Source: a virus (Duplodnaviria; Heunggongvirae; Uroviricota; Caudoviricetes). From it: 8,444 nt of DNA. The stretch's first letter is position 1. Every line of letters starts with the position of its first letter. The position numbers and the translations under genes are program-made. Location of the stretch: the IMG/VR virus record IMGVR_UViG_2700989521_000015, one strand, 5' to 3'. Positions 7,894 through 7,989 of the stretch are shown here, one piece after another. The notes below the pieces were generated by a model, which was given only the letters and a program-made list of their open reading frames with translations, was not told where the DNA came from and made no database searches.

Positions 7894-7989
7894 TGACAGT
7901 GTCCCTATAAGTACACTAAGCTTGCGCACAAGGTATACTTATAAGCACACCAAGTCACAAACAACCACAGATAGCGCAGGTTATCACAC
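7894..7989. promoter_or_regulatory. Divergent C / cox switch region: candidate operator direct repeats TATAAGTACAC (7906-7916) and TATAAGCACAC (7940-7950), 8-bp palindrome CTTATAAG (7938-7945), and a consensus TTGACA (7893-7898)
   Basis: Repeats and hexamers read directly. P2-type switches are known to use direct-repeat operators around face-to-face promoters. Promoter assignments are tentative: the best rightward pairing is TTGACA-N18-TAAGCT, and I could not place the leftward promoter convincingly. Confidence 0.5.

Follow-up and report, generated by a model that had tools for sequence, protein, structure and literature searches.

The C/cox spacer and its two repeated sites

The window, by which we mean the whole stretch of 8,444 nucleotides (nt) analysed here from IMG/VR virus record IMGVR_UViG_2700989521_000015, carries close to its right end two divergent genes, one for an immunity repressor (C) and one for a Cox-like protein. 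The original prediction took the DNA between them for an immunity switch following the logic of phage P2, with direct-repeat operators, and its account of a 96-base pair (bp) divergent region flanked by a gene for a 102-amino acid (aa) C agrees with what is found (Table 1). Integrase (int) and C run leftward and cox rightward, which is the P2 gene order, and the locus lies inside a P2-like prophage.

By its sequence, C is a homologue of the P2 repressor. Residues 3-98 match the P2 C structures PDB 2XCJ and 2L49 (E 4e-16), and the protein also matches phrog_147 (2.5e-31) and the Pfam families HTH_3 and HTH_31. With 102 residues and an N-terminal helix-turn-helix it has the make-up of a P2-C-type repressor, a protein of roughly 100 aa. 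It is 41-47% identical to P2 C, 38% to the C of WΦ and 38% to that of UTI89, and no C in the phage collection is more than 53% identical. The C-terminal tail is common to heteroimmune relatives. A scan of genome contigs with the C protein returned two loci.

The 11-nt repeats of the original prediction, TATAAGTACAC (7906-7916) and TATAAGCACAC (7940-7950), are indeed present with a start-to-start distance of 34 bp, as are the palindrome CTTATAAG (7938-7945) and a TTGACA at the C start, the first T of which is shared with the minus-strand start codon of C (CAT, 7891-7893). To call them direct repeats is correct as far as the copies are directly repeated, but the description is incomplete, since each copy is itself a dyad of 18-20 bp, perfect for the second site (O2) in intact relatives. 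The similarity also extends beyond 11 nt, to 22 nt at 77% identity (7899-7920 against 7933-7954), and the repeat search that found this also listed the two copies as a pair of inverted repeats. The 11-nt repeats form the cores of two 18-nt sites, O1 and O2, again 34 bp apart. In the common form, seen in about 40 IMG/VR, GTDB and Escherichia coli loci and referred to here as wild type, O1 is GTGTTCCTATAAGTACAC and O2 is GTGTACTTATAAGTACAC; wild-type O2 is a perfect palindrome over 18 bp, or over 20 bp when the flanking G and C are included.

A repeat of this kind could be no more than chance similarity in an AT-rich promoter region. The 11-nt core, identical at 10 of 11 positions, would allow this, as it was equalled in 115 of 2000 dinucleotide-preserving shuffles of the spacer (7894-7989) and is marginal when taken alone. 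The longer match does not: 17 of 22 positions were reached in 5 of the 2000 shuffles, two non-overlapping 18-mers with at least 7/9 dyad pairs in 3 of 2000, and the 16/18 identity of wild-type O1 and O2 in 0 of 400. Together with the conservation across diverged loci at fixed spacing described below, these counts effectively refute chance, to which we give almost no weight.

With up to two mismatches allowed, the 18-mer pattern GTRTNCYTATAAGYACAC, which was derived from O1 and O2 themselves, has no further copy in the 8.4-kb window (0.01 expected). Nor does the 11-mer recur in 40.7 kb around the corresponding locus of E. coli SE11, a region that includes the left ~22.7 kb of a 35.8-kb intact prophage; therefore no distal operator is seen in the part examined. 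The exact 18-mer GTGTACTTATAAGTACAC is also found in three unrelated IMG/VR contexts that have no TTGACA within 50 nt (loci L099, L101, L107, L111, L120, L126, L127, L131, L135, L136, L140 and L142); an open reading frame (ORF) runs through the site in one of them, and by a rough reckoning their number is compatible with chance for a collection of that size.

The two directly repeated sites bracket the −10 of a predicted rightward promoter, Pe, which at the level of sequence matches the P2-type arrangement. The Pe transcript is predicted to begin near 7929-7930, and O2 would occupy about +4 to +21 of it. Promoter prediction, one of the checks suggested at the outset, gave TTGACA-18-TAAGCT as the clear best match on the plus strand (11.45, against 6.0 for the next). 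The scan used our own weight matrix of hexamer frequencies, and its validation was limited to the recovery of the annotated P2 Pe and of the WΦ TTGACA-17-TATATT. The TATAAG inside O1 was considered as a −10 for Pe and rejected, as there is no acceptable −35 upstream of it.

Table 1 Features of the spacer, the flanking prophage genes and the rest of the window
Feature	Position	Strand	Remarks
C immunity repressor gene, 102 aa	7585-7893	−	N-terminal helix-turn-helix
Spacer between C and cox-like gene	7894-7989		96 bp
Predicted Pe −35, TTGACA	7893-7898	+	1-nt overlap with C start codon
Operator O1 (predicted)	7899-7916		Window GTGTCCCTATAAGTACAC, wild type GTGTTCCTATAAGTACAC; fills Pe spacer; imperfect dyad, 7/9 pairs
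Predicted Pe −10, TAAGCT	7917-7922	+	18 bp after −35
Operator O2 (predicted)	7932-7951		18-mer GTATACTTATAAGCACAC at 7933-7950; wild type is perfect 20-bp palindrome GGTGTACTTATAAGTACACC
Candidate Cox boxes, CACAAA and CACAGA	7956-7961, 7966-7971		10 bp apart; just upstream of cox
Candidate Pc extended −10, TGATAACCT	7978-7986	−	Recurs in all four mosaic relatives
Cox-like gene, 92 aa	7990-8268	+	First gene of rightward early operon
DUF4761 gene, start	from 8284		Next gene after cox-like gene; interrupted by an insertion sequence (IS)
P2-type tyrosine integrase (int)	6558-7535	−	Pfam Int_N 2.2e-28, Phage_integrase 1.7e-17; annotated phage integrase in SE11
Unnamed ORF, 120 aa	6193-6555	−	Two C-x-x-C pairs
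Unnamed ORF, 146 aa	5756-6196	−	Hydrophobic stretch at C-terminal end
attL / prophage end	~5606		From coordinates of SE11 paper
btuC	4593-5547	−	Host gene directly flanking attachment site
selO, ydiV, nlpC, btuD, btuE, btuC	after IS1, in that order	−	Host genes
IS1 (partial)	1-323	−	Terminal inverted repeat 294-323; 3' end of selO removed

Immunity types, natural mosaics and the Cox-like protein

The nine relatives compared have a common layout, in which a −35 lies at the C start, an 18-mer follows directly and a second copy lies 22-24 or 32-34 bp downstream. TTGACA occupies this place in eight of the nine, phiT5282H having TTGACG. The sequence of the 18-mer is specific to each immunity type: ATCTCTACCAT at 33 bp in SEN5 and phiT5282H, AGACGACT at 32 bp in the O104:H4 prophage and TGGTTCAT at 24 bp in Klebsiella CP052639. 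Re-measurement of the P2 and WΦ genomes gave GTTTAGAT twice at 22 bp in P2 and TATTGGTGAC twice at 34 bp in WΦ, each after a TTGACA that adjoins or overlaps the C start; the sites recovered in these two phages by layout are the experimentally defined operators (genome annotation; PMC1904268). In the window the 18-mers begin at +6 and +40 from the −35, offsets identical to those of WΦ. For the E275a-type relative no convincing repeat was found, the best being 12/18 at 23 bp, which was reached in 37 of 400 shuffles.

Within the window's own type, two diverged loci, whose C proteins are 88% and 70% identical, keep O2 at 18/18, O1 at 16-17/18 and the 34-bp spacing, amid diverged DNA, both in the 16 bp that separate the sites and further out. 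At the 70% locus, C residues 28-45 (PIGTLRRYETGRIENIGG), which hold the recognition helix, are unchanged. The predicted Pe −10 reads TAAGAT or TATTCT in diverged loci of the same type and TAAATT or TATATT in mosaics, TAnnnT being kept throughout.

The region matches 229 E. coli genomes, about half of which have in common with it only the last 107-123 nt of C. The three examined (the O104:H4 outbreak strain, E275a and JP538) agree with the window in the position of their integrase and in the C tail, and have a cox closely related to its own; they differ in both the C N-terminus and the repeats, for example AGACGACT twice at 32 bp. Two natural mosaics separate the components. JP538 combines the window's type of cox with an O104-type C N-terminus and O104-type repeats; in locus L053 the C helix and the repeats are those of the window, and the cox and its 10-bp repeats are of the Klebsiella type. 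The repeats therefore follow the helix-turn-helix part of C and not Cox. The exchanged unit is an immunity cassette of ~250 bp (~7708-7956) that comprises C residues 1-62, Pe, O1 and O2 (loci L008, L009, L010 and L053). The full cassette is present in 113 of 5426 complete E. coli genomes (~2%) and also in Salmonella, and the immunity type occurs in SE11, in enteropathogenic E. coli (EPEC) E2348/69 and in some O157:H7. DNA and protein searches found no phage record in the collection with this immunity type; megablast against the phage collection gave no match, and the distant mode gave one match of 81 nt, within the C gene of a Klebsiella record. The same operators, with a C that is 98% identical, occur on a contig labelled Vagococcus sp. 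WN89Y (L012), which is probably a contaminant or a mislabelled assembly.

The product of the first early gene matches phrog_575, 'Cox-like excisionase and repressor' (1.1e-07), and phrog_11533 (1.3e-54); it had no Pfam match. An alignment-based AlphaFold model built with 20 homologues (predicted local distance difference test score, pLDDT, 83.6) shows the order strand-helix-helix-strand-strand, with a long helix after this core. When this model was compared with the PDB by Foldseek, the top match was 4LHF, P2 Cox (probability 1.00, TM 0.60, E 0.086), with phage Xis lower in the list. A single-sequence AlphaFold model was poor (pLDDT 63.7, all helical) and was discarded. A phmmer search of the PDB returned noise only, hhalign against four Cox proteins of P2 and WΦ gave a helix-turn-helix match of 29 columns with a probability of 23%, and identity to the Cox of WΦ is 14-18%. 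On the basis of the model and this remote homology, it appears justified to call the product of the first early gene a remote winged-helix protein of the Cox type.

Such a protein would bring a second set of candidate sites. Proteins of the Cox/Apl type bind direct repeats in the switch region, and Apl-type sites lie about one helical turn apart, according to one report (PMC7498355). The Cox-like protein probably binds the CACAAA/CACAGA repeats (7956-7971) next to its own gene. The block that holds them, ACAAAnAnCCACAGA, is kept in four of the five other compared loci with the window's cox type and is replaced in the E275a/L054 type by GCCACAAA twice, 10 bp apart. Other cox types have their own 10-bp-spaced repeats at the same place, ACCCnAAA twice in the Klebsiella type and AAAACAAACC twice in the UTI89 type, and in L053 these repeats go with the cox type and not with C. 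The spacer from ~7957 rightward is conserved together with cox in the mosaics. These observations bear on the alternative that O1 and O2 are themselves the binding sites of the Cox-like protein, for which their place between the two genes and the known binding of such proteins to direct repeats would speak. In JP538 and L053, however, it is the N-terminus of C, not cox, that the 34-bp repeats follow, while repeats at the one-turn spacing expected of Apl-type proteins exist further right and co-vary with cox. We regard Cox binding at O1 and O2 as very unlikely.

Site symmetry, promoters and the state of this copy

Dyad symmetry at the second site is found in three immunity types. At offset +39/+40, 9/9 pairs form in the wild-type O2 of the window's type, 8/9 in the O104:H4 type and 8/9 in the UTI89 (ΦECO5) type; the O104:H4 and UTI89 dyads are unrelated sequences at the same offset. 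Shuffled sequences gave 9/9 in 0-0.2% of cases and 8/9 or more in 1.4-4.8%. The same test found no dyad at the repeats of P2 and E275a, the types with 22-23-bp spacing. In WΦ (L002, ~2089-2118) the O2 half-site can be seen by eye to lie within an inverted repeat of 30 bp, whose 9-nt arms, TCAAAAGGT ... ACCTTTTGA, are perfect. At O1, the left arm reads TAGGGAC on the minus strand (TAGGAAC in wild type), 9 nt before the ATG at 7893, and likely carries the ribosome-binding site of C. This second constraint would explain the imperfect dyad of O1.

Palindromes in this position might act mainly as RNA hairpins in the leaders of the Pe and C mRNAs, with effects on stability, processing or translation. 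O2 lies in a region predicted to be transcribed from both promoters, O1 overlaps the putative C ribosome-binding site, and strong unrelated palindromes at +39/+40 in three immunity types resemble structural covariation. Against this, O1 and O2 are alike in sequence and not in symmetry alone; the sequence is kept at 18/18 in diverged relatives, shows no compensatory change and co-varies with the C recognition helix; and for Pe, O1 lies in the untranscribed spacer. An Rfam search of the whole window matched no family. Hairpin formation seems to us improbable as the main function of these palindromes; an additional, secondary role of this kind is possible.

How C would occupy the sites is a separate matter from their identity. 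In the P2 paradigm the half-sites have no dyad symmetry, which is not what is seen here, where wild-type O2 is perfect and O1 pairs at 7/9. The half-sites of P2 C are non-palindromic, and yet the symmetric P2 C dimer resembles proteins that bind palindromes (PMC2995052); WΦ C can bind a single half-site and P2 C cannot (PMC1904263). We propose that O1 and O2 may each be a complete operator for one C dimer, in place of the P2-style arrangement of one subunit per half-site, a reading that agrees with both sets of results. More tentatively, and with the balance tilting slightly against it, the P2 C family may have two operator architectures. In one, with short spacing (22-26 bp), the half-sites would be non-palindromic and need each other, the characterised examples being P2 and P2 Hy dis. 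In the other, with long spacing (32-34 bp), dyad sites would be bound independently; here would belong the window's type, the O104:H4-prophage type, ΦECO5 of UTI89 and perhaps WΦ. If this is true, recognition of non-palindromic direct repeats would be a peculiarity of P2, and the natural, swappable 250-bp cassettes would lend themselves to the study of co-evolution between helix-turn-helix and operator.

For leftward transcription, the minus-strand TGnTAACCT could be the extended −10 of the C promoter, Pc. In the Klebsiella and UTI89 types it can be read by eye as TGnTATCCT. If this is the Pc −10, leftward transcripts would start near 7971 and overlap those from Pe by ~40 nt. TACCTT (7935-7930), within O2, was considered as an ancestral Pc −10 and rejected, as it exists only through a G-to-A change at 7935 that is private to the window; the wild type there is CACCTT.

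That change is one of three at the operators. The window differs from the SE11 prophage by 11 substitutions in 2784 nt, three of which fall within the 36 nt of O1 and O2: T>C at 7903 in O1, and G>A at 7935 and T>C at 7946 in O2. All are private and lead away from the consensus of other loci (binomial ~3e-4, in a test chosen after the data had been seen), and IMG/VR locus L017 has two of the three in common. A disabled prophage might have been selected for weaker repression, positions that C does not contact might tolerate change, or the pattern might be due to chance. Further damage lies to the right of cox, where the end of an IS3-family element (~8376-8385) interrupts the DUF4761 gene; homology to the SE11 prophage stops at 8384. 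This IS end (~8376-8444) is probably IS600-like, and its 70 nt have 1713 occurrences spread over 434 plasmids of Shigella and E. coli. Its presence and that of the IS1 suggest an IS-rich, Shigella-like host.

The copy in the window may thus no longer be a working lysis/lysogeny switch, and the repeats may be the remains of one that once was. This possibility concerns present activity, not the identity of the sites. In its favour are the concentration of differences from SE11 in the operators and the presence of mobile elements at both ends, one in the gene after cox and the other at the far end of the window. On the other side, int, C and cox are intact ORFs, C is 100% identical to the common allele, and two of the three operator changes are at arm position 5, which varies in other loci and may be uncontacted. 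The two sides come close to balancing, and we lean only slightly towards a locus that is still active.

The remainder of the window is enterobacterial chromosome joined to the left end of the prophage. The selO ORF is 450 aa long in the window; the SE11 gene has 1437 nt. Between the prophage end and int, which is co-transcribed with C in the P2-type family, lie two overlapping ORFs (5756-6196 and 6193-6555) that match phrog_9415 and phrog_4293, gave no convincing match to Pfam or PADLOC, and are possible prophage cargo. SE11 has the same arrangement at the left end of its prophage, 99.6% identical, and there the complete prophage has P2-family capsid, portal, terminase, tail, lysis and replication genes; the SE11 genome paper describes a P2-like prophage, PP_SE11-4, of 35.8 kb between btuC and ihfA (PMC2608844). 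A 2026 survey of P2-like viruses gives the BtuC permease as a putative auxiliary metabolic gene (PMC13100340). At this locus btuC is a host gene beside the attachment site, and that call may be an artefact of the prophage boundary.

The proposed switch and its relation to known systems

We consider it likely, on the evidence of homology, conservation and co-inheritance, that the repeats are where C binds in the lysis/lysogeny switch of a P2-like prophage (Peduoviridae), with the 34-bp geometry of WΦ and a sequence of their own. Pe would fire rightward into the cox-like gene, and Pc, a leftward promoter close to where cox begins, would supply C. The repressor would bind two copies of one dyad-symmetric site of 18-20 bp, the first in the Pe spacer and the second just past the predicted start. 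Occupation of both would shut Pe and confer immunity to phages with the same operators. The Cox-like protein, on the CACAAA/CACAGA repeats, would in turn shut Pc. The P2-type logic anticipated in the original prediction is borne out by the C homologue, the remote Cox-type neighbour, the int-C/cox order and the placing of the repeats around the predicted Pe as in relatives.

Several points limit this proposal or weigh against it. (i) The homology of C, the Cox fold, the repeat statistics, the conservation and the mosaic co-inheritance were computed; from these we infer binding, transcription starts, Pc and the number of C subunits per site. (ii) The 11-nt core is marginal when taken by itself. 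(iii) Neither the WΦ O2 nor the P2 sites form dyads; symmetry is therefore not shared by the whole family and may be incidental, as in an RNA hairpin. (iv) A simple consensus scan for promoters and terminators found nothing between 7700 and 8200, and the predicted Pe −10, TAAGCT, is weak. (v) The candidate Pc −10 (minus strand, 7986-7978) overlaps AGG (7978-7980) of the cox ribosome-binding site, and the scores of other candidates on the minus strand are similar. (vi) The Cox assignment is a remote similarity, with a Foldseek E of 0.086, an hhalign probability of 23% and no sequence match in the PDB. (vii) In this copy the private operator changes all lead away from consensus, and the early operon is interrupted by the IS3-family end.

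The recognised sequence (GTGTACTTA/TAAGTACAC) and the recognition helix of C differ from those of known switches, and the immunity specificity would therefore be a separate one. The suggestion that it might be distinct holds up in this sense, as C and operators differ from those of P2, WΦ and every sequenced phage in the collection. The logic of the switch is already well known and is unchanged by these findings; what is distinct is the operator sequence and the C protein. E. coli very commonly harbours P2-like prophages, and which phages can superinfect a lysogen depends on the immunity class. The window's type offers a testable repressor/operator pair orthogonal to those of P2 and WΦ, and palindromic sites with natural swaps give a simple way into a question raised by the P2 C crystal work, namely how the symmetric C dimer reads DNA.

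Judged by sequence against the established immunity classes, the type is uncharacterised. WΦ class III is marked by a C at least ~95% identical and the same operators; here C is 38% identical to that of WΦ and the repeats are TATAAGTACAC in place of TATTGGTGAC. Class I (P2) and class IX (ΦECO5 of UTI89) differ in their repeats and have C proteins 41-47% and 38% identical. The comparison covered these three classes, from which the type is set apart, and identity with class X (ΦECO6) is possible.

Phage 186, also P2-like, has face-to-face promoters and an Apl/Cox-type protein on 10-bp-spaced repeats. Its CI, in contrast, is a two-domain protein of 196 aa unrelated to C and uses distal operators; no distal copy of the window's operator was seen in the examined part of the SE11 prophage. 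For the proposed mode of binding, the nearest parallels are P22 c2 and C.Esp1396I, in which a symmetric dimer sits on a dyad, C.Esp1396I placing one dimer on each of its directly repeated palindromes (PMC2995052). They come from other protein families and other settings, the spacing of the C.Esp1396I sites is 15 bp, and the structural resemblance is that of P2 C.

Among P2-like phages, P2 Hy dis is a third experimentally studied class with direct repeats of its own, 8-bp half-sites 26 bp apart that flank the −35 rather than the −10 (PMC1904268). It was compared by published geometry only, and shows that spacing and position vary among classes. P2 itself shares with the window a homologous C, the int-C/cox layout, a −35 TTGACA overlapping the C start and operators that bracket the Pe −10. 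It differs in its sites, which are two 8-bp half-sites 22 bp apart centre to centre (PMC1904268) and non-palindromic (PMC2995052), against dyads of 18-20 bp at 34 bp here. The spacing had been thought unusual in the original prediction; it does differ from that of P2 but is not novel, since 34 bp is the published spacing of WΦ and was found again in the WΦ genome.

WΦ is the closest in geometry. There is no DNA similarity between the two switches, the operator sequences are unrelated and the C proteins are 38% identical; the WΦ spacer is 152 bp long against 96 bp here, its O2 has no dyad and its Cox is remotely related. The likeness is one of design. Gene order is the same, TTGACA lies at the C start, O1 follows the −35 and O2 lies 34 bp on. 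The half-sites, given as 10 bp for WΦ, where like those of P2 they bracket the Pe −10 (PMC1904268), are 10-11 nt or longer. WΦ C binds one site alone (PMC1904263), as would be expected if each site holds a dimer.

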